From assembly GCA_035711845.1 (NCBI GenBank), contig DASTBU010000126.1, positions 1,039 through 65,038 of the forward strand: a stretch of DNA of 64,000 bases, written 5' to 3'. Source of the DNA: Vicinamibacterales bacterium. GTDB taxonomy: Bacteria > Acidobacteriota > Vicinamibacteria > Vicinamibacterales > 2-12-FULL-66-21. The position numbers were made by a program, and so were the translations under genes. A model generated the notes under the pieces. The model made no database searches. It was given only the letters and a program-made list of their open reading frames with translations, and was not told where the DNA came from. This document shows positions 115 to 58,205 of this stretch, piece after piece (positions within the stretch are counted from its first letter, which is position 1; every line of letters starts with the position of its first letter).

Positions 115-1326
115 GTGTCGGTTTCTTTCTCCGACGTGCAACAGGCACGCGAGCGGATCGGCAACCTCGTCCTGGTCACGCCGCTGGCCTACTCGGCCAA
201 GCTCAGCGCATTGTCGGACTGCCGTCTCTCGCTGAAGCTCGAAAACCTGCAGATGACAGGCGCCTACAAGGAACGCGGCGCCTTCAGCAAGACGCTCCGG
301 CTGAGCGAGCAGGAACGGCGGGCCGGCATTGTCACCTCGTCGGCGGGCAATCACGCCCAGGCGGTGGCCTATGCCGCCAGGCAGCTCGGGGTTTCCGCGA
401 CCATCGTGATGCCGGAAACCACCCCCTTGTCCAAAGTCCAGGGTACCCAGGCGTTCGGCCCCACCATCGTCCTGCACGGCGACACCTATGATGCCGCCTT
501 CCATCGGGCCAAGGAGCTCCAGGAGCAGCGGGGATACACGTTCGTCCATGCCTTCGACGATCCTGACGTGATTGCCGGCCAGGGCACCATCGGTCTCGAG
601 CTGCTGGAACAGGATCCGTACCTGGACGTCGTCGTCGTGCCCATAGGAGGAGGCGGCCTCATCTCCGGCGTCTCGGTCGCGATCAAGGAGACGAATCCGA
701 AGATTCGCATCGTCGGGGTCGAGAGCGCGGCCATGCCCGGCATGCAGGCCAGCCTCGTTGCCGGCGAAGTCACGACCGTCCCCAGCGGCAGCACCATTGC
801 CGAGGGCATCGCCGTAGCCACCGTGGGCCGCCACACGTTTCCGATCGTGCAGAAATATGTCGATGACATCGTCACCGTCTCGGAAGAGGAGATCGCCAAC
901 GCCATCGTGATTCTGCTGGAGCAGGAGAAGACCCTGGCCGAGGGAGCCGGCGCGGCAGGCTTTGCCGCTCTGTGCAACCACAAGATCCAGGGCGTCGGCG
1001 GCAAGAACGTGGCCGTGATCGTCAGCGGCGGGAATATCGCGCTCAACATGCTGTCCAAGATCCTCGAGCGGGGTCAGGCGAAGGACGGCCGGCTGACGCA
1101 CTTGAAGGTGGTGCTGCCCGACAAGCCCGGGAGGCTGGCCGACCTGTCGGTTCTGCTGGCGGGTCACCGCGCGAACGTGCTGCACATGGTGCACGAGCGC
1201 TCGTTTTCGCAAGCCAATCTCGGCGAAGTGCAGGTTACCGTTACCCTCGAAACCCGGGGGCACCAGCACGCGCAAGAGATTCTCACGTCACTGTCACAGA
1301 ACGGGTTTCGTGTTGTCGCGGCCTGA
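115..1326 (+). CDS. ilvA: Threonine ammonia-lyase (threonine dehydratase), PLP-dependent, with C-terminal ACT-like domain
   Basis: 403-aa ORF with GTG start. PLP-lysine region LQMTGAYKERGA, SSAGNHAQAVA and the GGGGLISG loop are present. C-terminal LKVVLPDKPGRLADL looks like an ACT-like regulatory fold. Confidence 0.85.
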   Translation: MSVSFSDVQQARERIGNLVLVTPLAYSAKLSALSDCRLSLKLENLQMTGAYKERGAFSKTLRLSEQERRAGIVTSSAGNHAQAVAYAARQLGVSATIVMPETTPLSKVQGTQAFGPTIVLHGDTYDAAFHRAKELQEQRGYTFVHAFDDPDVIAGQGTIGLELLEQDPYLDVVVVPIGGGGLISGVSVAIKETNPKIRIVGVESAAMPGMQASLVAGEVTTVPSGSTIAEGIAVATVGRHTFPIVQKYVDDIVTVSEEEIANAIVILLEQEKTLAEGAGAAGFAALCNHKIQGVGGKNVAVIVSGGNIALNMLSKILERGQAKDGRLTHLKVVLPDKPGRLADLSVLLAGHRANVLHMVHERSFSQANLGEVQVTVTLETRGHQHAQEILTSLSQNGFRVVAA

Positions 1327-1536
1327 TTACATCGGCGCGCTCCGCCCTCCTGAACCACCCGTCCGGTAGTGCACCGCGCGAAGATGAAGCGCTTCAGCCA
1401 GGCTGCGTTTATCCCGCCGTTACCGGGTCGTCGGGAGGCAGTAGAATCCTGAGCGACTGGAAGGTCCCACCGCTATTGTCACCGAGTCGGGTTTCTCTGG
1501 TCATGGCCTCGCCGGCCCGCAGAGAGATCACGTCAG

Positions 1537-3261
1537 ATGCTGAGGAGCGCCATGGCCAAAAAGGCAGCCAATCTCGTCTACGGCGTCGACGACACGCCCC
1601 CGTTGACGGTGGCGGCTCTGCTCGGGCTCCAGCATGTGGTCGTGTTGACATCCGGTTGGGTGCTCGTGGTGGTGATCGTCACCACCATCGGCGGCACGCC
1701 GGAGGAGGTCACCAACGTCCTGCGGATGTCGATGATTGCCTCGGGCATCGCGACGATCGTGCAATCCCTTCACCAAAGCCCGGTTGGTTCCGGATTCCTG
1801 TGTCCCATCGGCAGTGGGCCTGCGTACGTCTCCGCGTCGATTCTGGCGGGCAGGACCGGGGGCTTGAGTGCGATCTTCGCGATGACCGCCCTCTCCGGCT
1901 TCTTCGAGGGGCTTCTCGGCCGAATCGTGCCGCGACTGCGTGCGCTGTTTCCGCCCGAAGTCACCGGGCTGGTGGTGACGATGGTGGGTATGGAGCTCGT
2001 GGCGCTCGCGTGCCCCAGGTTTCTCGGGTTTCAAGAGGGTGGCACGAGCCTGACAGGAAGCGTCGCCGCGGTGGCGACGGTGACGTTGGCCGCGATGATC
2101 GGACCGACGGTCTGGGGTAAGGGCAAGCTCAAGCTGTATCCCGTGCTCGTGGGTCTGTTCGTGGGATATGTTCTCGCCTATTTCGCCGGCGCTCTTCATA
2201 CCGACCGTCTGCAGGACATGTTCGACGCGTCGATGTTCAGCCTGCCGCGGAAGGTGCAGGGGGGCTGGTCCCTTCATCTCTCGCTGCTGCCCGCCTTCCT
2301 CATCGCCAGCCTGGCCTCGACGCTGAAGAGCGTCGGCGACCTGACCCTCTGCCAGAAGATCAACGACGCCGATTGGAAGCGCACCGACATGCAGTCGGTC
2401 AGGGGGGGCATTTATGCCGGTGCGATCGGCACCGGCTTGTCGGGTCTGCTCGGCGGCATCGGCCAATCGACTTTCTCGAGCAACGTCGGCCTGTCGCTCG
2501 CCACCGGGGCCACCAGCCGGTCCATCGCCGTTGCCTGCGGCATACTGATGATCCTCCTGGCCTTTCTACCCAAGCTCGCGGCCTTCTTCGCCGTGATGCC
2601 GGATCCCGTGATGGGCGCCATTCTCGTTTACGTCGCCTGCTACATGATTCTCGCGGGCATTCAGGTCATCACGTCGCGGATGCTCGACGCCCGCCGGACC
2701 TTCGTCGTCGGCATCGCCCTGATCTTCGGCCTGAGCGTCGACATGGTGCCCGGACTGTACCGCGACGTGCCCGACGCCATTCAGCCTCTCTTTTCGTCGT
2801 CTCTGTCGATTTCTACGGTGCTGGTCGTGCTGCTGAACCTGCTCTTTCGTATCGGCATCACCAAACGCCGGTCCCTGGAGCTGACGCCCGGTGTCGACGG
2901 TTCGCAGAAGATCTTCGAGTTCATGGAGACGCAGGGGAGCATCTGGGGAGCGCGCCGCGAGGTGATCATGCGTGCGACAGCGGCGCTCAACGAATTCGTA
3001 GAGTCCGCCGCCGCCCTGGGCTTCGTGAGAGGTAGCGCCGTGGCCGACGTCAGCTTCGACGAGTTCAATCTCGACCTGGACATTCGATACGCCGGAACGC
3101 TGATGGAATTCCCGAGCCGGCGGCCGACCGCAGAGGCGCTGCTCGCGGACGACAGCGGCGTCGCCGGCCTTTCCGGTTTTCTGATTCGCCAGTACGCCGA
3201 CCGCGTCAAGACGGAGCACGAGAACGGCCGGTGTCGAATCTCGATGCACTTCGACCATTGA
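1537..3261 (+). CDS. NCS2 (xanthine/uracil) family nucleobase permease with C-terminal RsbW/SpoIIAB-like degenerate GHKL domain
   Basis: 574-aa ORF. The first ~440 aa are polytopic and match the nucleobase:cation symporter-2 pattern (GLQHVVVL..., SNVGLSLATGATSR). The last 129 aa (2872-3258) are soluble and align by eye with the RsbW-like protein at 6549-7010. The start could instead be the ATG at 1552. Confidence 0.8.
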   Translation: MLRSAMAKKAANLVYGVDDTPPLTVAALLGLQHVVVLTSGWVLVVVIVTTIGGTPEEVTNVLRMSMIASGIATIVQSLHQSPVGSGFLCPIGSGPAYVSASILAGRTGGLSAIFAMTALSGFFEGLLGRIVPRLRALFPPEVTGLVVTMVGMELVALACPRFLGFQEGGTSLTGSVAAVATVTLAAMIGPTVWGKGKLKLYPVLVGLFVGYVLAYFAGALHTDRLQDMFDASMFSLPRKVQGGWSLHLSLLPAFLIASLASTLKSVGDLTLCQKINDADWKRTDMQSVRGGIYAGAIGTGLSGLLGGIGQSTFSSNVGLSLATGATSRSIAVACGILMILLAFLPKLAAFFAVMPDPVMGAILVYVACYMILAGIQVITSRMLDARRTFVVGIALIFGLSVDMVPGLYRDVPDAIQPLFSSSLSISTVLVVLLNLLFRIGITKRRSLELTPGVDGSQKIFEFMETQGSIWGARREVIMRATAALNEFVESAAALGFVRGSAVADVSFDEFNLDLDIRYAGTLMEFPSRRPTAEALLADDSGVAGLSGFLIRQYADRVKTEHENGRCRISMHFDH

Positions 3262-3313
3262 CCCGGATTTCGATTGAGTCGACCCTGCATGCAGCCACAT
3301 CGAGCACGATGAG

Positions 3314-4603
3314 ATGACCCGAAGCATGCCCGCCAGCCGGCGCCGGGCGCTCGTCGCGTCCGTTGTTGTCGTCGCCTCGGTCCTCGGCCTGCTGATCGGC
3401 CTCGGACGTGGCCGGCCGGAGCCAATCCGCGTTGGCGTGCTGCACTCGCTCTCGGGCACCATGGCCATCAGCGAGCGCCCGGTGGTGGACGCGACCCTGA
3501 TGGCGATCGACGAACTGAACGCGGCCGGCGGTCTGCTCGGTCGTTCCGTCGAGGCGGTCGTCCGCGACGGCGCGTCGGATCCCGCTACCTTCGCGCGGGA
3601 GGCCGAACGGCTGATCGCTGTCGATCGTGTGGCGGCGACATTCGGCTGCTGGACCTCCGCCGTCCGTAAACAGGTGAAGCCGGTGGTCGAGCGGCACGGT
3701 CATCCCCTCTTCTATCCCGTGCAGTACGAGGGTCTGGAGGCCTCCCCCTTCATCATCTACACGGGTGCGGCCCCGAACCAGCAGATCATCCCGGCCGTCA
3801 CCTGGGCGCTCGACAACCTCGGCCGGCGCTTCTTCCTCGTCGGGTCCGACTACGTGTTTCCGCACACGGCCAGCGCCATCATCCGCCACGTCACGAGCGC
3901 GCTCGGCGGCGAGGTCGTGGGCGAGGCGTATGCGCCGCTGGGCGCCCGCGACATGGCTGGGATCGTCGACGAGATCGGGCGCGCACGGCCCGACGTCATT
4001 CTCAACACCATCAATGGCGACAGCAACGCCGCGTTCTTCCACGCGCTGCGTCAGGCCGGCGTCACGCCGGCGCAGATCCCGACGGTGTCGTTCAGCGTCG
4101 CCGAGACTGAACTGGCGACGATCGGCGTGAAGGACTTCGTGGGCGATTACGCGGCCTGGAACTACTTTCAGTCGGTCGACTCGGAAGAGAACCGGCGGTT
4201 CGTCGAGGGGCTGCGACGCCGGACCGGCGCCACTACGGCATCCGACCCGATGGAGGCCGCGTATCTGGGTGTGCACCTCTGGGCGCGGGCCGTGCACGAG
4301 GCCGGGGCGACCGAGACGACGGCAGTGCTCCAGTCGCTGGCCGATCAGAGCTTCGCTGCCCCCGAAGGGGTGGTCTACGTCGACGCCCTCACCCACCACA
4401 CGTGGAAGACCGTACGGATCGGGCGGATACGGTCCGACGGCCAGTTCGACATCGTCTGGGATTCTCGAAGACCGGTCCGCCCCGTCCCTTTTCCCGCGTA
4501 CCGGACCCGCGCCGAATGGGACGCCTTCCTGACCGCTCTCTTCAATCAATGGGGCGGGCGCTGGGTCAATGAAGGGGCGACGGAGACGGGGAGCCGGCCG
4601 TGA
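3314..4603 (+). CDS. UrtA/AmiC-like periplasmic ligand-binding protein (urea/short-amide type, Peripla_BP_5/6), membrane-anchored
   Basis: 429 aa. N-terminal anchor ALVASVVVVASVLGLLIGL, then VGVLHSLSGTMAISE, FGCWTSAVRK, FYPVQYEG, YTGAAPNQQ, NTINGDSN and AAWNYF, which are characteristic of the UrtA/AmiC family. Its stop overlaps the next gene's start (GTGA at 4600-4603). Confidence 0.8.
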   Translation: MTRSMPASRRRALVASVVVVASVLGLLIGLGRGRPEPIRVGVLHSLSGTMAISERPVVDATLMAIDELNAAGGLLGRSVEAVVRDGASDPATFAREAERLIAVDRVAATFGCWTSAVRKQVKPVVERHGHPLFYPVQYEGLEASPFIIYTGAAPNQQIIPAVTWALDNLGRRFFLVGSDYVFPHTASAIIRHVTSALGGEVVGEAYAPLGARDMAGIVDEIGRARPDVILNTINGDSNAAFFHALRQAGVTPAQIPTVSFSVAETELATIGVKDFVGDYAAWNYFQSVDSEENRRFVEGLRRRTGATTASDPMEAAYLGVHLWARAVHEAGATETTAVLQSLADQSFAAPEGVVYVDALTHHTWKTVRIGRIRSDGQFDIVWDSRRPVRPVPFPAYRTRAEWDAFLTALFNQWGGRWVNEGATETGSRP

Positions 4604-6549
4604 AACGCTCGCACAGGCTCTCTGTGCAGCTCAGCGTGTGGTTCGTCGCCATCGCGCTGGTGCCGCTGGCCATTGTGACCGTGTCGACGTATCTGGCCGC
4701 CGAGCGCGCCCTGCGCAGCCAGGTGACGACCGGCCTCTACGCGATCGCCCGGCGGCAGGCCAATGAGATTGCGACCTACGTGCGCGAGCGCGAGCAGAAC
4801 GTGGCGACGCTCTCGCGCATGCCCGGCACGATTGACGCGCTGGAGGAGCTCGGGCGCGCGTTCGCCGGGGACGGCCAGGGACCGGCACTCGACACGCTCG
4901 ACCGGCAGTATCGCCCGTTCCTCTCCTACTATCAGGAAGCCTTCGGCTATGACGACCTGTTGCTCGCCCTGCGCGACGGCAGCGTGGTGTTTTCGGCCCG
5001 GCGCCGGCAGGCCGTAGGGACCAATCTGCGCGCCGACCCCCACCGGACGACGGGTCTCGGCGTGGCGTTCGATCGCATCCGGACCCTGCTCGAGATCGAT
5101 TTCTCCGACTTCGCACCGTCGGGCGAGGGAGATGTCGCGGCGTTCCTGGCGGCGCCCGTGCTCGAGGAGAACACGCTGCTCGGTGTCGTGATTCTCCGGC
5201 TGAACAACAGCGAGATCCTCCGGATCCTGTCCGACCACACCGGACTCGGCCAGACGGGCGAAACGTTGCTCACGCAGCGAATCGACGACGACGCGGTCAT
5301 CGTGGTGCCGCTGCGTCACGGAGCCGATGCGCCGTTCACGCGCCGTATCGCGCTCGGCAGTCCATTCGGCATCCCCGAGCAGCGCGCCGTGCAGGGCTCT
5401 CGCGGCGAAGGTATATCGGTGGATCATCAGGCGCAGCGGGTCCTGGCCGTATGGCGCTACGTGCCCGCGCTGGGCGCCGGACTGGTCGTGAAGATCGGCA
5501 TTGCCGAGGCGTTCGCCCCGATCCGGTATCTCACGCTCCTGGCGCTCGGTCTCGCGGCCACGACCGTCGGGCTGGTCGTCCTCGCCGCGCGCTCGGTCGG
5601 CCGGTCGATCTCCGGTCCGGTCGTTACGCTGACGGCCGCCACGGCGCATATGGCCGATGGCGATCTGACCCGGCGGGTCGACGTCACGGCGCGAAACGAG
5701 ATCGGCCAGCTCGCCCGCGCCTTCAACCAGATGACCGAGCGGCTCGCCCGATCGATCGAGGAGCTGAGGGAATCGACCGCGGCGAAGGAGCGGATCGAGA
5801 GCGAGCTGAGGGTCGCCCACGATATCCAGATGGGCATCCTCCCGAAGATCTTTCCACCCTTTCCCAACCGGCCCGAGTTCGATCTGCACGCCATGCTCGA
5901 GCCTGCCAAGGCGGTGGGCGGGGATTTCTACGATTTCCTGCTGTTCGACGACGAGGAGCTCTACGTCGTCATCGGCGACGTGTCGGGAAAGGGTGTACCC
6001 GCGTCGCTGTTCATGGCCGTCACGCTGACGCTCTTCCGATCGTCGGTGAGGCGCGGTCTGGGTCCCGGGGCGCTGCTGACCAAACTCAACAGGGACCTGT
6101 GCGTGGACAACGTGTCGTCGCTCTTCGTCACGGTCTTCTGCGCGCGCCTCGACGTGCGCAACGGCGCGTTGGTGTTCTCCAACGGCGGACACAATCCCCC
6201 GTATCATGTGGCGGCGGGCGGCGTGTCGCCGCTGCCGCTGCGCGGCGGACCCGTGCTCGGCGTGATCGACCAGACGATATACGCCGAGGATTCCGTGACG
6301 CTGGCGCCTGGCGACACGCTCGTGCTGTTTACCGACGGCATCACCGAAGCCACGAACTCGGCAGACGAGCTGTACGGGGACGATCGGCTCCGCGCCTCGC
6401 TCGACGGCCACCGCGCGGCGCGCGCCGCTGGCATCGTGAGCGAAACGGCGGCCGATGTGCGCCGTTTCGCCGGCGGCGCCCCCCAGTCCGACGACCAGAC
6501 GATGCTGGTGGTGCGATACCACGGCCCTGGTGACGTGAACCGACGCTGA
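4600..6549 (+). CDS. Membrane-bound Cache-HAMP-PP2C (SpoIIE/RsbU-like) serine phosphatase
   Basis: 649 aa. Order of parts: TM helix, ~270-aa extracytoplasmic Cache-like domain, second TM, HAMP (EIGQLARAFNQMTERL), then PP2C/SpoIIE motifs (AKAVGGDFYDF, VIGDVSGKGVPASLFM, FTDGITEA, QSDDQTMLVV). Confidence 0.85.
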   Translation: MKRSHRLSVQLSVWFVAIALVPLAIVTVSTYLAAERALRSQVTTGLYAIARRQANEIATYVREREQNVATLSRMPGTIDALEELGRAFAGDGQGPALDTLDRQYRPFLSYYQEAFGYDDLLLALRDGSVVFSARRRQAVGTNLRADPHRTTGLGVAFDRIRTLLEIDFSDFAPSGEGDVAAFLAAPVLEENTLLGVVILRLNNSEILRILSDHTGLGQTGETLLTQRIDDDAVIVVPLRHGADAPFTRRIALGSPFGIPEQRAVQGSRGEGISVDHQAQRVLAVWRYVPALGAGLVVKIGIAEAFAPIRYLTLLALGLAATTVGLVVLAARSVGRSISGPVVTLTAATAHMADGDLTRRVDVTARNEIGQLARAFNQMTERLARSIEELRESTAAKERIESELRVAHDIQMGILPKIFPPFPNRPEFDLHAMLEPAKAVGGDFYDFLLFDDEELYVVIGDVSGKGVPASLFMAVTLTLFRSSVRRGLGPGALLTKLNRDLCVDNVSSLFVTVFCARLDVRNGALVFSNGGHNPPYHVAAGGVSPLPLRGGPVLGVIDQTIYAEDSVTLAPGDTLVLFTDGITEATNSADELYGDDRLRASLDGHRAARAAGIVSETAADVRRFAGGAPQSDDQTMLVVRYHGPGDVNRR

Positions 6550-7010
6550 TGCACGAAGCGCTGTCCATCACGATTCCCAATCGGTTGGCCGAGATCGAGA
6601 AGGCCGCCCGGCTCATCGAGACGTTCGGCGAGACGCACGGCTTGCCGCCGGAGGTCGTCTTCAACTTCAACCTCGCGCTGGATGAGATCTTGACGAACAT
6701 CATCTCCTACGCTTACGACGACGAAGCGGACCATCGCGTCAAGGTCCACGTGACGCTCGATTGCGACGTGGTCTCGGTGCGGGTGGAAGACGACGGCCGC
6801 GCGTTCAATCCGTTGGACGCCCAGCGGCCCGATATCCGGCTCGGCATCGACGAGCGCCCGATCGGCGGGCTGGGCGTACACATCGTGCGGTCCGTGATGG
6901 ACGCGCTCGAGTATCGCAGGGAGAACGGCCGTAACATCTTCATCATGAGCAAGCGGACACCGAGAGAAGCGGGATCGGCTCCTTCCACCGCCGAGCCTGG
7001 AGTCGACTGA
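6549..7010 (+). CDS. Anti-sigma-type serine kinase (RsbW/SpoIIAB-like, HATPase_c_2)
   Basis: 153 aa. N-box LDEILTNII, G1 VEDDGRAFNP and G2 GGLGVHIV are intact. The ATG overlaps the stop of the phosphatase gene (TGATG at 6547-6551). Confidence 0.8.
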   Translation: MHEALSITIPNRLAEIEKAARLIETFGETHGLPPEVVFNFNLALDEILTNIISYAYDDEADHRVKVHVTLDCDVVSVRVEDDGRAFNPLDAQRPDIRLGIDERPIGGLGVHIVRSVMDALEYRRENGRNIFIMSKRTPREAGSAPSTAEPGVD

Positions 7011-7041
7011 GCGGGAGATCGTCTGCAGAGAGGAGCGGCGT

Positions 7042-7377
7042 GTGGAGATTTACAGCGCAGAGGAAGCCGGCGTCATGATCATCAGCGTGAAGGGCCGGCT
7101 CGACGCCGCCAGCGCGGGCGGCCTCGAGGGCGAGGTGCGGCGCCAGGTGGACGCCGGATCTCGACGGCTGGTCCTCGACCTGACGGACCTAACGTACGTC
7201 AGCAGCGCCGGGATCCGTGTCTTCCTGCTCGCGGCCCGCCAGCTCCGCGGGCTTGGCACGCTCCTGCTGGCGGCGCCGTCGCCGATGGTCCGGCAAGTCT
7301 TCGACATCGCCGGCGTCGATGCATTCGTCGACGTTTGCGAGACGACTGCTGCCGCGGTCGACAGGCTCCGGAGCTGA
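7042..7377 (+). CDS. STAS-domain anti-sigma-factor antagonist (RsbV/SpoIIAA-like)
   Basis: 111 aa. VKGRLDAASA...LVLDLTDLTYVSSAGIRVFL carries the conserved phosphorylatable Ser context (SSAG). Confidence 0.85.
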   Translation: MEIYSAEEAGVMIISVKGRLDAASAGGLEGEVRRQVDAGSRRLVLDLTDLTYVSSAGIRVFLLAARQLRGLGTLLLAAPSPMVRQVFDIAGVDAFVDVCETTAAAVDRLRS

Positions 7378-7476
7378 ACACGGCCGCTGCCAGCGCGGAG
7401 GAGCGCCGCGAAACGCGGAACAGGGGTTCGCGCTGACTCGGCACAACCCAATCCGCGTGTGACCCTTCCCGTCTAG

Positions 7477-7525
7477 TGGCTGGGACCGCATAGGGCGGTG
7501 TACTGGCTGGAGACCGCACAGGGCG
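7477..7525. repeat. Two imperfect ~22-nt direct repeats (TGGCTGGGACCGCATAGGGCG / TGGCTGGAGACCGCACAGGGCG)
   Basis: Read directly at 7477-7497 and 7504-7525 in the non-coding stretch after the STAS gene. A CGCTGGT...ACCAGCG hairpin follows at 7527-7554. Confidence 0.4.
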
Positions 7526-7735
7526 TCGCTGGTTCCTCGTCCACGGTACCAGCGACAACCTGATCACCGTCAACGACGCGTCGACACCTCGGATATCAGC
7601 CGGCATCGAGCGCGGGCGCGCCGGCCGTACGTGCGGTGCTGTTGCAAGCGCTGCGGCGAGATTTCGATCAATCGACACCGGTTTTCATTGCGACGGCTGA
7701 AAGTGTTCGACAACGGGAAGCAGGCGAGGTGCGGT

Positions 7736-7945
7736 TCAGGGTGGACCGCCACGCATACGGCGCGCCTGCTCTTCGGCTATTGCTTCCAGTTCGGCGATCG
7801 CTTCGAGACCGCGCGGCCTGCCGGCGGCGCGCTTGGTGTGGATCAGCGAGGGCAGGTCCAGGCACCAGACATCCCGGTCGAAGATGTTCACGCGGAGGGA
7901 GCGCGCCAGCAGCCGATCGAAGCCGCAGGGGATCTCGCCGGGCAA
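7736..7945 (-). pseudogene. C-terminal fragment of a nucleotidyltransferase-fold (toxin-antitoxin type) protein
   Basis: 69-aa ORF ending in LPSLIHTKRAAGRPRGLEAIAELE. This motif type (K..AGR..D...I..L) is typical of C-termini of MNT/AbiEii-like nucleotidyltransferases. The catalytic N-terminal part is absent. Confidence 0.35.
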
Positions 7946-8073
7946 ATCGATGTCCCCGCATCAACGGGCCGTATGATGACGAGCGAGTGACCACTTCTGG
8001 AAGGCAAGACACGTCAGGCGGAGTGCGCACGACACTCGTTTGGCGACTTACGGGAATCCCGAGGAGGATTGAG

Positions 8074-8511
8074 ATGGCGAAGGCACCGCTCAGTTTTACT
8101 TTTTACATTGCGGCTCCGATCGAGAAGGTCTGGAACGGATTCGTGTCGAAGGAGGCGAACCAGACCATCTTCATGGGCGCGGACTTCGACGTGGACCTCG
8201 AGCCTGGCGGGGCGATGAGTTGGTCGGGGCCCGGTAAGGATGGCAAGCCGACGCGATATGTGACGGGGAAGGTGCTCAGGGTGGAGGCACCGAAGCTGCT
8301 CGAGTACAAGTTCGGCATGGGCGAGGGGACGGTGATGTCGAGGGTGAAGGTGGAATTGACCCCGGAGACCGAGGCCGTGAAGGTGGTGGTCACGAACGAT
8401 GAGTGGGCGGATGACGATCCGGCGTATGTGCAGAACGCCGAGGGCTGGCCGCGGATTCTCTCGCGATTGAAGACGCTCTTGGAGACGGGGAAGACATTTC
8501 GACCGCATTGA
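8074..8511 (+). CDS. SRPBCC / AHSA1 (activator of Hsp90 ATPase homologue)-like domain protein
   Basis: ATG at 8074 is preceded by GAGGAGGA. The 145-aa product (FYIAAPIEKVWNGF..., EGWPRILSRLKTLLETG) is typical of SRPBCC family proteins. Confidence 0.8.
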   Translation: MAKAPLSFTFYIAAPIEKVWNGFVSKEANQTIFMGADFDVDLEPGGAMSWSGPGKDGKPTRYVTGKVLRVEAPKLLEYKFGMGEGTVMSRVKVELTPETEAVKVVVTNDEWADDDPAYVQNAEGWPRILSRLKTLLETGKTFRPH

Positions 8512-8617
8512 TGGCCGACGATCGTGAAATGATCAAAGGGCCCGCCCACGCGAGCGAAGTCAAGAAAGAGCGCGGAGTTCGCGCGGCTGCGCCCGAGACA
8601 GCCGGAGCCCGCAAGGT

Positions 8618-8824
8618 GCCGTGCAGGAGTGCCGCCAGCTTCGCGGCGGTGTCCTGTTGCATCGACGGCAGGACGTGTGCGTAGATCCCCAGCGTCATCT
8701 CGACTTTGGAGTGACCGAGTCGACGCTGAACACGTGCGCCGAGACGCTGGCTGACAGCCTTCAACGTCGCGACGGTATGCCGCGCCTTCGAGATGTCTTG
8801 CGAGGGTTGTAACTCCTCGTTCAC
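8618..8824 (-). pseudogene. Tyrosine recombinase (phage-type integrase) C-terminal fragment
   Basis: RHTVATL...LGHSKVEMTLGIYAHVLPSMQQD matches the conserved RHT...LGHS...Y.HV catalytic C-terminus (Arg, His, Tyr). There is no N-terminal or core-binding part, and the protease gene starts at 8846. Confidence 0.55.
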
Positions 8825-8845
8825 GTTCGCAGGGACGATTACCTG

Positions 8846-10495
8846 ATGTTCCGTGCATTAGTCATCGCGACGCTCATCATCTCCACAGGAGCTTGGCAAG
8901 ACGACGGGCCGCGCATTCTCCAGATCAGGATTGTGCTGCCCGACGCGGACGGAAGACTGACACCGGTACCTCGGCACCGGCTCCTCATCAGCGACAATCC
9001 GGTCACCGCCTCACCGCGGCTCGTGATCACGGACCTGGACGGCACCGCGACGGTCCGGTTGCGTCCCGGAAGCTATACGGTCGAGTCCGACCTCGCAGTC
9101 GCCCTTCACGGCAAGTCGTACTCGTGGACGGAGCAGGTGACGGTCGCTGCCGGCAAGGACGCGTCGCTCGAGTTGACCGCCGAGAACGCGCAGGTCGAGG
9201 CCGCAGCGGGCTCGACGACAGGCTCCGCGCCCGCAACGGGGTCCGACGCGGCCTTCTTCCTCAGGAAATGGCAGGACAGCGTCGTCGCACTCTGGACGCC
9301 GACGACGCGCGGGTCGGGATTCGTGATCGATGCGAACGGGCTGATTGTCACGAACCAGCGGATCGTCGGCGACGCGAAGTCCGTGGAGGTGCAGTTCACG
9401 CCGCAGCTCAAGGTGGCGGGGAGTGTGCTGGCGGCTGATGCCGAGCGCGACGTAGCGGTGATCTGGATCGCCGCGACGACGATCGCCGAACTCCGTCCGG
9501 TGCCTCTCCCATGCAATCCCGGGGCACGCACTGCCATCGAGAACGGCCAGGAGTTGTTTGCGCTCGGGGCCTCGCTCCAGCCGCCGAAGCGCATGTCCTC
9601 AGGCATCGTGAGCCGCGTGGACTCTCACAGCATCATGCTGGACCTCGGTATCGCGCGCGGCAGCGCCGGTGGACCGGTTTTCTCGTCCGGTGGCGATCTC
9701 GTGGGAATCACCACCGTCACCGGCCAGGACGATGGTGACGCACTGGGCGGGACCCGCGTGGTCCACAGCGGGCACGCGTGCGACGTCGTTGCCGCCGCGA
9801 AGCAGAAGATGAGTGCTGCAGCCCCTCCCGCCAGCACACCCCTGCCCGTCGAGCCGGGGCGGCCATTCCCGGTCAGCGCGTTGAAGGCGGCCGCCGAGCG
9901 CCGCGCCGGCAGCCTGAACCCATACCAGATCCAGGCGTCCGGCTTCGACGTGGCCTTCATTACACCCGTGCTGACGTATGGGGCTCAGTATCAATTCGAG
10001 CAGATGCGGCGCCGGCGCACGACCAGCAAGGACACGCGCACAGCGCAGCCGGATCCTCCCACGAGGCGGGCGATCATGGATTTCGCGAACTGGTCCGAAT
10101 ATGTCTGGGAGTTTCCGCCGGTGCTCCTGGTCCGCGTGACGCCCAGGATGGCCGAGGGCTTCTGGACGACGGTCGCCCGCGCCGCCGCCCGCACGCAGGG
10201 TGTCGCCCTTCCGCCGATGAAGCGCTACAAGCCGGGCTTCTCCCGGATGCAGGTATTCTGCGGCAGCGCAGATGTGACGCCGATCCATCCCTTCAAGCTC
10301 GAACGCCGTATCTCGGAGAGCGACGCGATCTTCGAAGGTCTTTACGTTCTCGACCCGGGAGCGCTCGGGCCGCACTGCGGCGCCGTGAAGCTCGTGCTCT
10401 TCTCAGAGGACGAGCCGGAGAAGGGGGACACACAGGTCGTCGATCAGCGAGTGATCCAGCAGATCTGGGACGACTTCGCGCCCTATCGGAGATAG
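8846..10495 (+). CDS. Secreted trypsin-fold (S1C/HtrA-like) protein, two catalytic-triad positions substituted in a by-eye alignment, with N-terminal Ig-like domain and ~230-aa C-terminal domain
   Basis: Signal peptide MFRALVIATLIISTGAW. Protease-fold motifs are GSGFVIDANGLIVTNQRIV (His position occupied by R), DVAVIWI (Asp kept) and GSAGGPVF (Ser position occupied by A). Confidence 0.7.
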   Translation: MFRALVIATLIISTGAWQDDGPRILQIRIVLPDADGRLTPVPRHRLLISDNPVTASPRLVITDLDGTATVRLRPGSYTVESDLAVALHGKSYSWTEQVTVAAGKDASLELTAENAQVEAAAGSTTGSAPATGSDAAFFLRKWQDSVVALWTPTTRGSGFVIDANGLIVTNQRIVGDAKSVEVQFTPQLKVAGSVLAADAERDVAVIWIAATTIAELRPVPLPCNPGARTAIENGQELFALGASLQPPKRMSSGIVSRVDSHSIMLDLGIARGSAGGPVFSSGGDLVGITTVTGQDDGDALGGTRVVHSGHACDVVAAAKQKMSAAAPPASTPLPVEPGRPFPVSALKAAAERRAGSLNPYQIQASGFDVAFITPVLTYGAQYQFEQMRRRRTTSKDTRTAQPDPPTRRAIMDFANWSEYVWEFPPVLLVRVTPRMAEGFWTTVARAAARTQGVALPPMKRYKPGFSRMQVFCGSADVTPIHPFKLERRISESDAIFEGLYVLDPGALGPHCGAVKLVLFSEDEPEKGDTQVVDQRVIQQIWDDFAPYRR

Positions 10496-10591
10496 TCCCT
10501 TCCTCAGCCTGCGATCATGCGCAGGACCGGCTCTCCTGCGGGAACACGTATCGTGGTGTGCTGTGGCCTGAGCGGCATCTCGTCGCGTGCC

Positions 10592-10623
10592 GATGCGCAC
10601 ACTCGCGCCGCAGTGTGCGCATC
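10592..10623 (-). terminator. Perfect 12-bp hairpin just 3' of tRNA-Leu
   Basis: GATGCGCACACT - CGCGCCGC - AGTGTGCGCATC, read directly. It lies 15 nt beyond the tRNA 3' end and also downstream of the convergent protease gene. No clear U-tract. Confidence 0.55.
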
Positions 10624-10637
10624 GACGGCCCTCTGGG

Positions 10638-10724
10638 TGGTGCGGAAGAGAGGATTTGAACCTCCACGACCTTGCGGCCACAAGCTCCTGAGGCTTGCGC
10701 GTCTGCCAGTTCCGCCACTTCCGC
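10638..10724 (-). tRNA. tRNA-Leu (anticodon CAG), class II with long variable arm, CCA encoded
   Basis: The reverse complement folds by hand. Acceptor GCGGAAG/CTTCCGC, anticodon stem CAAGC/GCTTG, loop CTCAGGA, variable arm GGCCGCAAGGTC, T-loop TTCAAAT, 3' ACCA. Confidence 0.9.
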
Positions 10725-15959: not shown

Positions 15960-16216
15960 GCATGCGGGCGCACGGACGAGCGGCCTCGCGCCGATAAGGT
16001 ACGGGCCGGGTGCGGAACCCGCTTGGCGGTCAACCTTTACGCAGGCTGTGGGCTCGGATCGTCCCGCAACGGGCCGGTTTCCGCGGTTCGGATGTGGTAA
16101 TATTTACGTTGAATAGAAGCACTTACGAGGATTCGCACATTCCAAACGGAACCCAGAGCCGATTGACCCGGACCGACCGGAACGGGCGCGGCCGCGGTCG
16201 ATCGAGCAGGAGAAGT

Positions 16217-17266
16217 GTGCCGGCGGTCCGGACGGATCTGGCCGAACGCCTCCGCCCGTTGCAGACAACGCTCCGGCGTACGCTGGCGCGGGCCGACGTT
16301 CTCGCTGACATGACGCGCGTGGTCAACGCCAGCCTCGAGCCCGAACGGGTGGCCGAGGCGCTGGCGGCAGCCGTCTCCGCGTGGGTGCCCGCCTCGGGGT
16401 GGCTCGTGCTCGCCATCGACGATGGCGGCCGGGTTCGGACGATGGCGGCGAAGGGCCTGACGACGGTGCTGGAACGCTCGGCGCAGGCGGTGGGGGACTG
16501 GGTGCTCCAGAGCGCGGAAGTGTTCGCGAGCGCGGATCTCGCCTCCGACACGCGCGTCGTACGGCTCGACGTGGAGCCCGCGGCCGCGATCGGGTTCCCG
16601 CTGGCGTGTCGCGGGCGCACGGTGGGCGCGCTGATTGCCATCGACCGTGCACCGGCGACGCGACAGCCGCGATTCGCGCCGGCGACGCTGGCCGCGCTGC
16701 GGTCGGCGCTCGAGCCCGGGGCGATCGCCCTCGACAACGCGCTGCGCGTGCAGCGCGCCGAGGCGCTGTCGGTGACCGACGATCTGACGCAGTTGTACAA
16801 CTCGCGGTATCTGTCGCAGGTGCTGCGGCGGGAGACGAAGCGGGCGATTCGCAGCAGCCGCCCGCTCTCGCTGCTGTTCATCGACCTCGACGGCTTCAAG
16901 TCGATCAACGACTCGCACGGGCACCTGTTCGGCAGCCGGGCACTGGTCGAAGCGGCGGGCGTGATTCGCGCCAGCGCGCGCGAGACCGACGTCGTGGCCC
17001 GGTTCGGCGGCGACGAGTTCGCGCTGGTGCTGCCCGACACCGGCACGGATGGAGCCGTCTACGTCGGGGAGCGCATCCGTGAGCGCCTTGCCGCACACAG
17101 GTTTCTGGAACGGGATGGGCTGGGCATAGCGCTCACCGCATCTGTCGGGGTTGCGACGCTGCCCGCGTCCGCCACGACGGCAGAGGGGCTGATCCAGGCC
17201 GCCGATCAGGCCATGTACGTCGTCAAGGATCGCGGCAAGAACGGCATCAGGGTCGCCGGGGCATAG
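16217..17266 (+). CDS. GAF-GGDEF diguanylate cyclase
   Basis: GGDEF domain with TDDLTQLYNSRY, FIDLDGFKSINDSHGH and RFGGDEFALVL. The N-terminal half looks like a GAF domain. Proposed GTG start at 16217 follows AGGAGA; the ORF is open from 16010. Confidence 0.8.
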   Translation: MPAVRTDLAERLRPLQTTLRRTLARADVLADMTRVVNASLEPERVAEALAAAVSAWVPASGWLVLAIDDGGRVRTMAAKGLTTVLERSAQAVGDWVLQSAEVFASADLASDTRVVRLDVEPAAAIGFPLACRGRTVGALIAIDRAPATRQPRFAPATLAALRSALEPGAIALDNALRVQRAEALSVTDDLTQLYNSRYLSQVLRRETKRAIRSSRPLSLLFIDLDGFKSINDSHGHLFGSRALVEAAGVIRASARETDVVARFGGDEFALVLPDTGTDGAVYVGERIRERLAAHRFLERDGLGIALTASVGVATLPASATTAEGLIQAADQAMYVVKDRGKNGIRVAGA

Positions 17267-27677: not shown

Positions 27678-28316
27678 CTATCTTTTTTCTGCGAGCAGCG
27701 CCCGCAGCTTCATCCGTGCCTTGTGTACCTGCGATTTCGACGTCCCTTCGGCGACGCCCAGAACCTCCGCCACCTCGCGGTGCTCCAGCCCCTCGACATC
27801 GTGGAGCACGAATGCGGCACGGCAACCGTCCGGAAGCCGCGCCAGCGCGCGCTCGAGATCCATCTTCGTCACGGTCTGTTCGGCCAGCGTCGCGCTCGAC
27901 GGATCCGGCAATCCCGCGTCGTCGTCCAGGGCATCCGTGACCTGACGGGACCGGCCGCTCCGGCTCCGCAGGTGGTCCAGGCACAGGTTCGTGGCGAGCC
28001 GATACAACCACGTGCCGAGCGCCGACTCCCCGCGGAACGTGTCCAGCTTCCGGTGGGCCGCGAGGAAAATCTCCTGCAATAGATCTTCGGCGTCGGCCGG
28101 GTTGCCGACGAGCCGCAGCGCCACGCTGTACAGGCGCCCGGCATGGAGCCGGTACAGCTCTTCGAACGAACCGAGATCGCCCCGGCGGCAGCGTTCGACC
28201 AGGGTCAGCTCGTCCTGCCGTCCTGCGGGCGCATGCGCGCGCCCTGCCGCCGCGGGATGCACTGTAACCTTAGACGTCCCCATGCCCAGTTCGCGTTGCC
28301 GCCCGGCCCATTCCAT
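27678..28316 (-). CDS. ECF (sigma-70 family group 4) RNA polymerase sigma factor
   Basis: Region 2 (FEELYRLHAGRLYSVALRLVGNPADAEDLLQEIFL, WLYRLATNLCLDHLR) and region 4 (VLHDVEGLEHREVAEVLGVAEGTSKSQVHKAR). The start is uncertain (28316 or 28283). Confidence 0.85.
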   Translation of the reverse strand: MEWAGRQRELGMGTSKVTVHPAAAGRAHAPAGRQDELTLVERCRRGDLGSFEELYRLHAGRLYSVALRLVGNPADAEDLLQEIFLAAHRKLDTFRGESALGTWLYRLATNLCLDHLRSRSGRSRQVTDALDDDAGLPDPSSATLAEQTVTKMDLERALARLPDGCRAAFVLHDVEGLEHREVAEVLGVAEGTSKSQVHKARMKLRALLAEKR

Positions 28317-55328: not shown

Positions 55329-58205
55329 TCACCTCCCTGACGCCATCAGCTTTCCTCGCAGTTCCTCGATCCAGTTCTGCACCAAGACGAGCTGCAGCCG
55401 TGACGCCGGCGTGTCGGTGCTGGACCGCAGCATCAGGAAGCGCTGGTCGTCTGCCGAGACTTCGAAGTCGGGTCCGAGCTGGCCGCCGAACGGCTCGTAG
55501 GCGAACAAGCGTGCATGGCCGAGTACGGTGAATGTCTTGCCGGTCCCGACGGATGCGGCGACGAACGATTGGCCGTCGTAGTAGAACAACTCGCCGCCGC
55601 GGTGCGCCCAGCGTGGCGACGTTCCGCCTGCCAGCGATACCTGCGACTTGCCGTTGGCAACGTCGGGGAACGGGCGAACGTAGATTTCGAAGCGGCCCGA
55701 CTCGTCCGACTGGTAAGCCATCCAGCGTCCATCAGGCGAGATCTGGGGCCGCAACTGCGCGAACGCGCCCGTGAGCAGCCGGCGAGGGCTGTCCGGGGAG
55801 CCTGGCACGAGCGCGTAAATCGATTGCTCGCCGTAGCTGCGGAACTCCGTGAAGAGCAGCGTGCGGCCGTCGTGCGACCACCCGTGCGGCGTGTGAAGCC
55901 GGCTGCCCGAGGTGGTGAGCCGCCGGACCCGACTGCTGCCATCGATCGTCTCCAGAAACAGGCCGCCGCCATCGCGTTCCGATCGATAGACTACCGCGCG
56001 GCCGTCCGGCGTCCACGACGGCGCGGTCTCGGACGTGGGATCGCGGGTCAGCCGGGTCATCGTTCCGTGCTCGATGTCGCCCACCCAGATATGCGTGTTG
56101 TCCCGTTCGCTCACCGCCAGTGCGATTCGGCGGCCGTCGCGCGAGAGGGCCGCGCGCGTGTAGCCCCGTGGCTCGAAGCGGAGCGGCGTCTCCCTGCCGC
56201 TCCGATTCAGCCAGACCAGCTGGCGTTCCCGCACTTCCACCCGGCGCGGGGCGTACATGAGCGATCCTGCTGCCACGTCAAAATGCGCGGTTGCGCTGGC
56301 AGCCGTATCGAGCGCTTCCACCACCGGAACGGCCTCGCCTGTGATTTGCAGCCGGCGCTCGTCGAAGGGCGCTGCCCACATCGTATGGTCGCGGACGAAC
56401 AGCAGATAGCCCGGAGCGAGATAGCGTGGCTGCGATCCGGCTGTTAGAACGGTTACCCTCTTCGTGTCGAGCCGCACGACGGCCACCAGCCGCTCCTGCG
56501 CGCGCACGATTGTGAAGAGCGCTGCGTCCCCGCCGGGCATGACGTGCGGGAACGTGTGCGCGAGGTCGCCCGCGGCAACGTCGAGCAGCGTCACCGGTTC
56601 CGGTGTGCCGCCGCTTGCCGCGACCCGGTTGAGCATTCGCCCGGTTGCGGTCGAGAAGACGATCGTATTCCCGCCCCAGCTCGCAGTCGCTCCTCCCGGC
56701 GCCGGACAGATGGTGACAGGTGTTCCGCCATCGACCGACAGCTTCTGCAGTGTGCCGGCGCCATCGAATGCGAGCCATGCGCCGTCGGGCGAAAAGAACG
56801 GCCCGGCCGCGTTCGTTGTGCCCGGGATCGGTTCCGACTCCATCCCGTCGAGCGCATGCTTGAAGAGCTGAACGGTGCCGGCCCGGCTCGCACGATAGAC
56901 GACGGTACGGCCATCGGGGGAGAGTGACGCGACCTGCTGGGCACTCGCGATCAGCACATCCGATGCAGGGACCGGTACCGCCAGTCGAACCACCGCGGGC
57001 GGACGTGCCCGCCAGGCCCGAGGCAGCAGAACACCCCCGCCGATTCCTGCGATCAGAATGAATGTGGCCGCAGCCGCCCTGAACGCCGTCGATCCCCAGC
57101 GAGGCCGGCGTTCCCACGGTCCGGCCTTGCCATCCCCGTGCTGCGTTCGTCCGAGATCGAGCATGGCACTGCCAAGATCGGCGAGCCGCCCCGCCGGGTC
57201 CTTTGTCAGCGCACGCCGCAGCACCCGCCGAACATGTTCGGGCGTGGCAGCCGGCAGCAGCGAGAAGTCCGCCTCGCGTTCGACCACGTGCGCGATGGTG
57301 TCCTGCGTCGTGTCGCGGTCGAAAGCGCGCACGCCCGTCAGCATCTCGTAGAGCACGCAGCCGAATGCCCAGACGTCAGCGCGGTAGTCGACCTCCACGC
57401 CCCGCGCCTGCTCGGGTGACATGTACGCCGGAGTTCCGACAATCCGGCCCGGATCGTGGAGCGACGTGATGTCGGCAGCACTGCTTCCAACCGCTTTTGC
57501 GAGCCCGAAGTCGAGGATCTTGACCGTGCCGTCGGCGATGACCGACACGTTGGCCGGTTTCAGATCGCGGTGCACGATCCCTCGTCGGTGCGCGGCTTGG
57601 AGGGCAAGCGCGATCTGGGTGGCGACGGACAACACCTCCCGAATTGGGAGGGGGCCCGACCCGATGCGCTCGGCGAGCGTCGTGCCTTCGACGTACTCGA
57701 GCACGAGTGCCTGGCGGTCGCCGTCTTCAGCCAGGCCGTAAATGGCAGCGATGTTCGGATGGTTGAGTGAAGCCAGGAGCCGCGCCTCTCGGTCGAAGCG
57801 CGCCAGCCGCTGGCGATCCTCGACGAACTCCCGCGGCAATACTTTGAGCGCCACCATGCGCCCGAGACGCTCGTCCCGTGCGCGGTAGACTTCGCCCATG
57901 CCGCCGCGCCCGACGAGCTCGAGCACCACGTAGGTGGTGAAGCGCTGGCCCGGCTCGAGTGCCGGGGGCTCCGCCTCGTGGGCCTCCTCCCAGGCCTCGG
58001 ACAGCAAGCCTGCCATGGCGAGCCCGCTCCGCTCGAGGAATCCGTCGTCCTGTTCCGCTTCCGCAAGAACGTCGAGGAGCGCCTCCGCAAGATCCGGATT
58101 GTGGCCGGCCTCGCGACCGATGAACGCGCGGCGTTCCTCGGGTGGATGGTCGAGCGCCCGGTCCAGCAGGTCGTTTGCTTCCGGCCACTTGCCGAGATCG
58201 CTCAC
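55329..58205 (-). CDS. Ser/Thr protein kinase with TM segment and C-terminal TolB-like PD40 beta-propeller
   Basis: GTG at 58205 overlaps the sigma gene stop (GTGA). Kinase motifs GRGGMGEVY, VALKVL, HRDLKPANV, DFGLAK and GTPAYMSPE. TM helix AAATFILIAGIGGGVLL. Repeated PD40-type segments (SPDGRTVVY, SPDGAWLAF, SRDGRRIAL, TPDGRAVVY, SHDGRTLLF, SPDGRWMAY). Confidence 0.85.
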   Translation of the reverse strand: MSDLGKWPEANDLLDRALDHPPEERRAFIGREAGHNPDLAEALLDVLAEAEQDDGFLERSGLAMAGLLSEAWEEAHEAEPPALEPGQRFTTYVVLELVGRGGMGEVYRARDERLGRMVALKVLPREFVEDRQRLARFDREARLLASLNHPNIAAIYGLAEDGDRQALVLEYVEGTTLAERIGSGPLPIREVLSVATQIALALQAAHRRGIVHRDLKPANVSVIADGTVKILDFGLAKAVGSSAADITSLHDPGRIVGTPAYMSPEQARGVEVDYRADVWAFGCVLYEMLTGVRAFDRDTTQDTIAHVVEREADFSLLPAATPEHVRRVLRRALTKDPAGRLADLGSAMLDLGRTQHGDGKAGPWERRPRWGSTAFRAAAATFILIAGIGGGVLLPRAWRARPPAVVRLAVPVPASDVLIASAQQVASLSPDGRTVVYRASRAGTVQLFKHALDGMESEPIPGTTNAAGPFFSPDGAWLAFDGAGTLQKLSVDGGTPVTICPAPGGATASWGGNTIVFSTATGRMLNRVAASGGTPEPVTLLDVAAGDLAHTFPHVMPGGDAALFTIVRAQERLVAVVRLDTKRVTVLTAGSQPRYLAPGYLLFVRDHTMWAAPFDERRLQITGEAVPVVEALDTAASATAHFDVAAGSLMYAPRRVEVRERQLVWLNRSGRETPLRFEPRGYTRAALSRDGRRIALAVSERDNTHIWVGDIEHGTMTRLTRDPTSETAPSWTPDGRAVVYRSERDGGGLFLETIDGSSRVRRLTTSGSRLHTPHGWSHDGRTLLFTEFRSYGEQSIYALVPGSPDSPRRLLTGAFAQLRPQISPDGRWMAYQSDESGRFEIYVRPFPDVANGKSQVSLAGGTSPRWAHRGGELFYYDGQSFVAASVGTGKTFTVLGHARLFAYEPFGGQLGPDFEVSADDQRFLMLRSSTDTPASRLQLVLVQNWIEELRGKLMASGR

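Follow-up and report, generated by a model that had tools for sequence, protein, structure and literature searches.

The C-terminal tail of an NCS2-family permease encoded in a 64,000-nucleotide stretch of a Vicinamibacterales bacterium (GenBank assembly GCA_035711845.1, contig DASTBU010000126.1, positions 1,039 to 65,038 of the forward strand; the whole stretch is referred to here as the window) is a divergent, kinase-dead offshoot of the SpoIIAB/RsbW anti-sigma kinases by fold and ancestry and is not a functional member of that family. The permease, a protein of 574 amino acids (aa), is encoded by an open reading frame (ORF) at window positions 1537 to 3261 on the forward strand and is the first gene of a tightly packed same-strand run (1537 to 7377) in which a complete RsbU-RsbV-RsbW-type set is also encoded. 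The fusion of permease and tail is genuine, old, and widespread, and its members form a large unannotated family. We propose, with confidence that is evenly balanced for and against, that the kinase-dead tail may be where a sigma-independent partner-switching module docks to control the permease.

The membrane body of the permease (residues 1 to 440; positions 1537 to 2856, forward strand) has 14 transmembrane (TM) helices in the UraA fold of NCS2/NAT permeases. The Pfam model Xan_ur_permease (PF00860) covered residues 27 to 405 with an E value of 1e-59 and a score of 202.7 bits against a cutoff of 27, and NCS2 models were the only NCBIfam models to match the protein, every match stopping by residue 437. 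Foldseek analysis of the membrane part returned UraA, UapA, and SVCT1 as the best matches (for UraA, an E value of 5e-16 and a target-normalized template modeling score of 0.83), with SLC26 transporters as the next class, and no single solved structure spanning both the membrane body and the tail was found by Foldseek. An AlphaFold2 model of the full-length protein, permease plus tail, reached a predicted local distance difference test score (pLDDT) of 90.1 and a predicted template modeling score (pTM) of 0.83. In that model the last membrane helix, TM14, occupied residues 422 to 438 and the first strand of the tail began at residue 444, leaving a linker of about 5 residues. We conclude that Pfam assignment and fold both establish the permease body as a true NCS2 protein.

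The cytoplasmic C-terminal tail (residues 442 to 574; positions 2860 to 3258, forward strand) was assigned an RsbW/SpoIIAB-like Bergerat fold from sequence, model, and motif comparisons. An earlier reading made from the sequence only, without database searches (the sequence-only reading), had delimited the domain to positions 2872 to 3258, which correspond to residues 446 to 574 and run up to the stop codon, and had aligned it by eye with the RsbW encoded downstream. BLASTP comparison of the tail with that RsbW gave an E value of 6e-5 and 23% identity over 116 residues. For profile comparisons, alignment A1 was made from 21 tails out of 98 close relatives gathered, and alignment A2 was made from 25 RsbW homologues. 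A hidden Markov model (HMM) of A1 found the RsbW ORF with an E value of 3.7e-7 (24.7 bits) as the sole other match at E values of ≤10 among the 409 window ORFs of at least 50 aa, and it matched 16 of the 26 free-standing RsbW ORFs of related loci at E values of ≤1e-3 (best, 2.3e-8). Reversed-sequence controls for the same HMM gave nothing better than 0.13, and the similarity to the neighboring RsbW that had been seen by eye was thus above background. Moreover, hhalign comparison of A1 with A2 aligned 113 columns with an E value of 0.0084 and a probability of just 4.8%, and both BLASTP and hhalign reproduced the by-eye register. The first segment of that alignment (SLELTPG against SITIPN) fell outside the statistically supported region but formed a beta strand in the structural model, as would be expected of the fold.

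Database searches were far less sensitive to the relationship. The tail gave no Pfam or NCBIfam match, even at E values of ≤1, and it did not reach the gathering score (27.4 bits) of HATPase_c_2 (PF13581). When the 21 tails were scanned singly against Pfam, HATPase_c_2 was the top family but was found in 2 of the 21 only, with a best E value of 0.008. A search of PDB sequences with the tail profile returned nothing relevant, the match obtained being a chance one to a multidrug resistance protein (1yc9; E value of 0.2). Profile-profile support for kinship between the tail and RsbW is thus modest, and the hhalign result would not be decisive alone. We conclude that the similarity is significant in a targeted comparison and would be missed by a blind database search, and that the domain is unannotated because the similarity is too weak for such a search.

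Structure prediction, which could have returned a different fold, returned that of the SpoIIAB/RsbW anti-sigma kinases. AlphaFold2 run on A1 gave a model of the tail with a pLDDT of 93.3 and a pTM of 0.86, the topology of which (beta1-alpha1-alpha2-beta2-beta3-alpha3-beta4-beta5) is the SpoIIAB element order. The best 22 PDB chains returned by Foldseek were SpoIIAB, RsbW, UsfX, and Rv1364c-RsbW, except for ranks 17 and 20, which were the Leptospira response regulator LvrC; E values for the 22 chains ranged from 1.6e-5 to 2e-3 and template modeling scores ranged from 0.6 to 0.79. Weaker matches included SiaB (5e-3) and the catalytic domains of histidine kinases (3.5e-3 to about 1e-2). The GHKL/RsbW fold named in the sequence-only reading is therefore confirmed both by a confident model and by a Foldseek ranking that places SpoIIAB/RsbW ahead of histidine kinases.

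The ATP site that defines the kinases of this fold is degenerate in the tail. The N-box Asn coordinates Mg2+-ATP, the G1 Asp binds adenine, and the G2 glycines form the ATP lid. The free RsbW of the window carries all of these intact (E46 and N50 of the N box; D81 and G83 of G1; G106, G107, and G109 of G2), and the residues are invariant in its 25 homologues. In the tail, the substitutions listed from the sequence (TN to ES in the N box, DDG to YAG in G1, and GGLG to AGLS in G2) were all present as stated. To place them in the family, motifs were counted in 83 tails, drawn from 80 genomic loci together with the window, with positions assigned by the hhalign register. The N-box Asn position held Ser in 37 tails, including that of the window, Ala in 35, Thr in 4, and other residues in the rest, and it held Asn in none of the 83. 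The G1 Asp was replaced by Tyr in 83/83, the G1 Gly was retained in 83/83, and the residue between them, which is Ala in the window and a few relatives, was most commonly Glu (19 tails), Asp (16), or Arg (10). At G2, the aligned residues were A/I/V, K/R/G, L, and S/A, with the Leu alone conserved. The Glu matching RsbW E46 (tail E45) was retained in all but one of the 83 tails. Loss of the ATP-binding residues is thus family-wide and not peculiar to the window sequence. We conclude that the tail is without a canonical Mg-ATP site throughout the family, with an intact kinase encoded next door, and we infer that it is probably a binding-only module, as had been proposed.

The tails have also acquired conserved residues of their own. 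Invariant or nearly invariant positions, in tail numbering, were W29-G30-A31-R32, E45, E48, F66-D67-E68, Y77, G79, C125, H130, and H133. The C terminus of every member was an invariant H-[FLY]-[DNE]-H (H-F-D-H; window positions 3241 to 3258, tail residues 125 to 133), and a conserved Cys five residues ahead of the first C-terminal His completed a C-x4-H-x2-H pattern. This end could bind a metal or a phosphate, or it could touch the membrane domain.

The architecture is not confined to the window. When 1.84 billion representatives were searched exhaustively with an HMM, 768 clusters (50% identity) were returned at E values of ≤1e-3 and 455 at E values of ≤1e-10, and many of the matches were full-length proteins of 565 to 594 aa with the tail at the C terminus. 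A pattern scan in which each species was represented by a single genome confirmed at least 193 loci, a lower bound, and 80 of these from more than 10 phyla were kept; the fusion read from the window is accordingly present in at least 193 species. Bacterial loci came from Binatia, Syntrophales/Smithella, Bacillota (Pelotomaculum propionicicum, Sporomusa silvacetica, Sporomusa sp. KB1, and "Ca. Formimonas"), Dehalococcoidales, Nitrospirota, Acidobacteriota, Verrucomicrobiota, and others, and archaeal loci came from Methanothrix harundinacea, Methanophagales, and Methanosarcinales. Cluster look-ups added Sporomusa ovata, Methanofollis formosanus, M. aquaemaris, Cloacimonadota, and Syntrophorhabdus, and the database names of the clusters looked up were just "xanthine permease" or "solute carrier family 23 protein." The tail-bearing proteins of S. 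ovata and M. formosanus include WP_021166675.1 and WP_220680620.1, respectively.

An artifact of assembly or fusion was rejected as the origin of the architecture, as nearly all of the 80 loci, from many phyla, share an uninterrupted permease-plus-tail ORF of about 569 aa. Apparent stand-alone tail proteins of 112, 144, 193, and 205 aa were likewise rejected: they start at a conserved internal Met on short or frameshifted contigs and are gene-calling fragments. The locus with a tail 80% identical to that of the window (L001; ENA contig_30760, a 115-kb long-read contig; 7076 to 10618) illustrates the point, as its permease and many neighboring genes are split by frameshifts, and database "proteins" are therefore often fragments of 112 to 221 aa that start at an internal Met. 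We note that permease-plus-tail genes also occur in tandem, head to tail (L002, 6867 to 10402; L006, 6814 to 10402; L012, 4383 to 7932; L042, 8639 to 12219); such paralogues were found in several Binatia and "delta proteobacterium" loci, and the paired tails are 50 to 60% identical.

In the window, the permease is followed on the forward strand, after 53 bp, by a gene for a solo periplasmic binding protein (PBP) of the AmiC/UrtA-like Peripla_BP_5 type (3314 to 4603; PF13433, E value of 1.4e-156). The next gene, which overlaps it by 4 bp, encodes a membrane sensor phosphatase of dCache-HAMP-PP2C architecture and SpoIIE/RsbU type (4600 to 6549, forward strand), with E values of 2.8e-50 for SpoIIE, 1.2e-16 for HAMP, and 4.8e-8 for dCache_1, the last being under its gathering score. 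The start of the free-standing RsbW-type Ser kinase gene (6549 to 7010, forward strand; HATPase_c_2, E value of 2.5e-27) overlaps the phosphatase stop codon, and the run ends with a gene for a single-domain STAS protein resembling RsbV/SpoIIAA (7042 to 7377, forward strand; STAS, E value of 6.5e-19), which has the phosphorylatable Ser in YVSSAGIR. The operon contains no sigma factor gene, the nearest being one of the extracytoplasmic function (ECF) type 20 kb away (27678 to 28316, reverse strand), and a scan of positions 1200 to 8200 for promoters and terminators was uninformative. The solo PBP probably presents a ligand to the sensor phosphatase or to the permease. Type I PBPs (Peripla_BP_5/6) without adjoining ABC permease genes recur beside the tail-bearing permease elsewhere, including archaeal loci (L015, 5884 to 8343; L017, 4633 to 7530; L036, 403 to 2721), and in one Methanophagales locus the neighbor is a double-PBP protein of 819 aa.

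To describe genomic context across loci, six-frame ORFs were searched with the window proteins and with the A1 and A2 profiles. A gene for PP2C, RsbW, or STAS lay within 3 kb of the permease in 47 of 79 loci, and in 33 of the 52 that have at least 3 kb on both sides. Up to 3 kb from the permease, these switch genes had a density of 0.236 per kb, which is 6.3 times the 0.037 per kb seen beyond 4 kb. PP2C was found within 3 kb in 38/79 loci and RsbW in 27/79. Gene order varied by lineage, such that PP2C, RsbW, and STAS each directly adjoin the permease in some locus: the order was STAS-PP2C-RsbW-permease in Methanothrix and other archaea, including Methanosarcinales; PP2C-permease, followed by RsbW and STAS on the opposite strand, in Smithella; permease-(PBP)-PP2C(-RsbW fused)-STAS in Binatia; and STAS-permease-RsbW in Dehalococcoidales. 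The phosphatases were all membrane sensors, with dCache-HAMP in the window and in L055 and 5TMR-LYT in Methanothrix and Smithella. The phospho-Ser motif [YF]-x-S-S-x-G-[LI]-R was kept in 56 of 56 STAS ORFs from related loci. A subgroup with the order permease-PP2C-STAS had no RsbW gene (L048, L051, L054, L055, L057, L062, L077, and L078); in five of these loci (L048, L054, L055, L062, and L078) the permease and PP2C genes overlap, and the tails of the subgroup are equally degenerate in their motifs. The tail is therefore the sole RsbW-like partner there.

Sigma factor genes were found near the permease in just 3 of 80 loci. In Sporomusa silvacetica (L027, 10955 to 11983) the permease is followed by genes for an ECF sigma factor and a zf-HC2 anti-sigma factor, and in Pelotomaculum propionicicum (L019, 10978 to 13719) the genes that follow it encode an Hpt protein, a member of the sigma-70 family, and a protein of 438 aa that begins with a STAS domain; such neighbors are not general in the family. 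A sigma factor as the target of the system was rejected on the rarity of these neighbors and on the frequency of the family in archaea, which to our knowledge have no sigma factors. We conclude that the partner switch at the tail-bearing permease is not sigma directed, as the full cluster occurs in archaea, sigma genes are rare neighbors, and none is present in the window operon. Two Syntrophaceae loci that lack switch genes (L020, 10430 to 11828; L041, 10372 to 11827) have a major facilitator superfamily gene upstream of the permease and genes for PqqD-like and radical-SAM/SPASM proteins downstream, surroundings that look like a cluster of the type that matures ribosomally synthesized and posttranslationally modified peptides.

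One way in which these genes could act together is if the tail receives the output of the switch. The free RsbW, with its intact motifs, would phosphorylate the conserved Ser of STAS, and the membrane sensor PP2C would dephosphorylate STAS upon receipt of its signal, through dCache-HAMP in the window and through 5TMR-LYT in Methanothrix and Smithella. The permease tail would then be bound by STAS in one of its phospho-forms, by analogy with RsbV-RsbW most probably without the phosphate, and the complex would last, since the tail would be unable to phosphorylate its partner. The linkage of the permease to STAS genes supports such binding indirectly. UraA-fold transporters have a cytoplasmic C terminus, and NCS2 transporters are homodimers, as in the UraA and UapA structures; two tails would therefore lie side by side under the gate domains, as the STAS domains of SLC26 transporters do. 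Formed 5 residues beneath TM14 of the gate domain, the complex would alter transport and would amount to a noncovalent copy of the SLC26/SulP transporter-STAS unit. The most economical reading of the arrangement may be that the ancestral RsbW-RsbV contact has been kept. The wider proposition, that free STAS gates bacterial and archaeal NCS2 transporters through a kinase-dead RsbW domain, with the transporter as a direct effector of the phospho-relay in a noncovalent SLC26-like unit, is put forward tentatively and falls somewhat short of even confidence.

Several observations weigh against docking of STAS on the tail. The 79 loci are phylogenetically nonindependent. In the RsbW-less subgroup, no kinase for STAS phosphorylation is visible at the loci. 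About 40% of loci have no switch gene within 10 kb and have unrelated neighbors instead (e.g., Sporomusa L024 and L027 and Syntrophaceae L020 and L041), and the tail must therefore also use unlinked partners or have a partner-independent role. PP2C is the commonest direct neighbor, which fits contact between tail and phosphatase equally well. Finally, a ligand or a metal could be bound at the invariant polar residues W29-G30-A31-R32, E45, E48, D67-E68, Y77, C125, H130, and H133.

The frequency of PP2C next to the permease raises the possibility of a transceptor, in which the permease would be the sensor, an RsbT-like tail would bind the adjacent PP2C and activate or inhibit it depending on the transport cycle, the phosphorylation state of STAS would be set by substrate flux, and the actual output would be elsewhere. 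In B. subtilis, RsbT, a paralogue of RsbW, activates RsbU through direct binding, and the PP2C gene often lies 0 to 120 bp from the permease gene or overlaps its stop codon, the overlap being about 31 nucleotides in the RsbW-less subgroup. However, RsbT is an active kinase whereas the tail is without ATP motifs, the phosphatases have sensor domains of their own and no detected docking domain of the RsbU_N type, and the compact four- and five-gene clusters conserve no alternative output gene; we consider a transceptor possible but doubtful. The tail could instead heterodimerize with free RsbW and thereby sequester the kinase or localize it at the membrane. RsbW/SpoIIAB proteins are dimers, and RsbW directly adjoins the permease in Methanothrix-type clusters and lies 37 to 77 bp from it in Smithella and Dehalococcoidales. 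Heterodimers of RsbW paralogues have been proposed for RsbW3 and RsbW1 of M. smegmatis (PMC7693655). Such tethering is nonetheless unlikely, as the NCS2 homodimer already places two tails where they can pair with each other and RsbW is the most dispensable of the neighbors, being missing from a whole subgroup.

The loci without linked switch genes would be accommodated if the tail took no part in partner switching and its GHKL fold served to steady the dimer or, in what was once the ATP pocket, to bind a metal or a small molecule, with gene linkage a matter of coregulation only. The polar and aromatic residues that are new and invariant in the family, the H-x-x-H terminus, and the conserved Cys would suit such a domain, the high pTM of the full-length model suggests a fixed position of the tail against the membrane domain, and bacterial SLC26 proteins reportedly need their STAS domain for stability and function (PMC8256260). 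A purely structural or ligand-binding role seems improbable to us because PP2C, RsbW, and STAS genes are enriched 6-fold locally, in varied orders and in both bacteria and archaea, a pattern that would be difficult to account for if no direct functional link existed. Retention of E45 and of the G1 Gly, together with the absence of any other kinase gene from the permease-PP2C-STAS loci, would be explained if the tail were still an enzyme, an atypical kinase or nucleotide binder that phosphorylates STAS with, for example, E45 and E48 binding metal and Y77 stacking on the base. That the Mg-binding Asn is missing and the adenine-binding Asp is Tyr in every tail, that G2 is degenerate, and that most loci carry a separate intact kinase make an enzymatic tail very unlikely. 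Least credible, and scarcely to be entertained, is a membrane-anchored anti-sigma factor that holds sigma at the membrane and frees it upon STAS binding: ECF-type sigma genes directly downstream of the permease in S. silvacetica and Pelotomaculum would fit, but sigma genes are rare neighbors and absent from the window operon, a zf-HC2 anti-sigma factor of its own already accompanies the S. silvacetica sigma factor, and the family is frequent in archaea.

The tail shares with SpoIIAB, RsbW, and UsfX (PF13581; PDB 1TH8, 6M36, 8JZT, and 8IH8) the Bergerat fold, the order of elements, a length of about 130 aa, detectable homology, and PP2C and STAS neighbors. Unlike them, it is fused to a 14-TM permease, lacks the N-box Asn, G1 Asp, and G2 glycines, and falls below the Pfam threshold; it also has the new invariant motifs WGAR, FDEF, and the HFDH C terminus, and it occurs in archaea. 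In the kinase-negative homologues RsbW1 and RsbW3 of M. smegmatis and UsfX of M. tuberculosis, an RsbW fold binds partners without phosphorylating them; in M. smegmatis, a separate paralogue, RsbW2, is the kinase and RsbW1 and RsbW3 are nonkinase binders (PMC7693655), which is a precedent for the division of labor in the proposed model. These homologues are soluble, with SigF or a second RsbW as their target, whereas the tail is tethered to a transporter and has no sigma factor. With SLC26/SulP transporters, the architecture of which is summarized in PMC8256260, the tail-bearing permease has in common a related fold of 7+7 inverted repeats and a cytoplasmic regulatory domain, drawn from the partner-switching toolkit, directly after TM14. 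The likeness is one of architecture and not of membership: the domain fused in SLC26/SulP is STAS, the antagonist fold, whereas the tail has the fold of the STAS-binding partner, RsbW, and the STAS protein is separate and phosphorylatable.

The switch as a whole resembles SiaABCD and HsbR/HsbA of Pseudomonas, BtrUVW of Bordetella, and SypE/SypA of Vibrio in having a PP2C-kinase-STAS triad and a nonsigma effector, and SiaB-SiaC (6KKO) was among the fold matches of the tail. The effectors of those systems differ, being diguanylate cyclases, FlgM, or regulators of type III secretion or biofilm. It is set apart from the classical RsbU-RsbV-RsbW system by having no sigma factor as the regulated target. 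The permease body, in turn, resembles UraA, XanQ, UapA, and SVCT1 in its Xan_ur_permease domain, its 14-TM fold, and the greater part of the NAT signature (N-x-G-x4-T-G) and differs from them in some 130 extra C-terminal residues and in the replacement of the UraA glutamates. In alignment with UraA, E241 and E290, the uracil-binding glutamates, of which E241 is in TM8, correspond to K264 and S315, and H245 corresponds to D268 (residues 264 to 268 and 315 to 319; window positions 2326 to 2340 and 2479 to 2493). Among 35 family members, position 264 was Lys in 20, Asp in 6, and Arg in 4, and position 315 was Ser, Ala, Gly, or Thr. The NAT signature [Q/E/P]-N-x-G-x4-T-[R/K/G] in TM10 was found as N-V-G-L-S-L-A-T-G with Ser at the first position. 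As the substrate glutamates of UraA are replaced, the substrate of the tail-bearing subfamily may therefore differ from a classical nucleobase, despite annotations as "xanthine permease."

Elsewhere in the window, the reverse strand encodes a 1,008-aa Ser/Thr protein kinase with PD40/WD40-like repeats (55329 to 58358), and the forward strand encodes a GGDEF diguanylate cyclase (16010 to 17266). An ORF on the reverse strand (8390 to 8824) had by eye a C-terminal motif like that of tyrosine recombinases (LGHSKVEMTLGIYAHV) and gave no Pfam match; a tRNA-Leu(CAG) gene (10638 to 10724, reverse strand) is some 2 kb away, and the stretch around the ORF has a lower GC content (0.61 to 0.63) and a strong GC skew. 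The ORF may be an integrase remnant.

In the open-access literature, neither an NCS2 permease with an RsbW-like domain nor a transporter that acts as the effector of a partner switch was found; the NAT/NCS2 classification paper mentions no extra domain, and anti-sigma/STAS modules are not discussed in the archaeal signaling census. Posttranslational control of prokaryotic NCS2/SLC23-type transporters is essentially uncharted, and the family bears on which targets partner switching has besides sigma factors and in archaea. With the domain missing from Pfam and NCBIfam, between 455 and 768 clusters, depending on the E value chosen, are annotated as permease only. Switch and transporter can be tested jointly because some organisms with the compact four- or five-gene system are in culture, namely, Sporomusa ovata, S. 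silvacetica, Methanofollis formosanus, Methanothrix harundinacea, and Pelotomaculum propionicicum. The arrangement mirrors that of SLC26-STAS and bears on how regulatory domains attached to transporters have evolved. If the proposal is true, the archaeal homologues of RsbU, RsbV, and RsbW would gain a first target, and the puzzling link between sulfate transporters and anti-sigma antagonists that gave STAS its name would seem to reflect an ancestral, transporter-regulating role of the toolkit.

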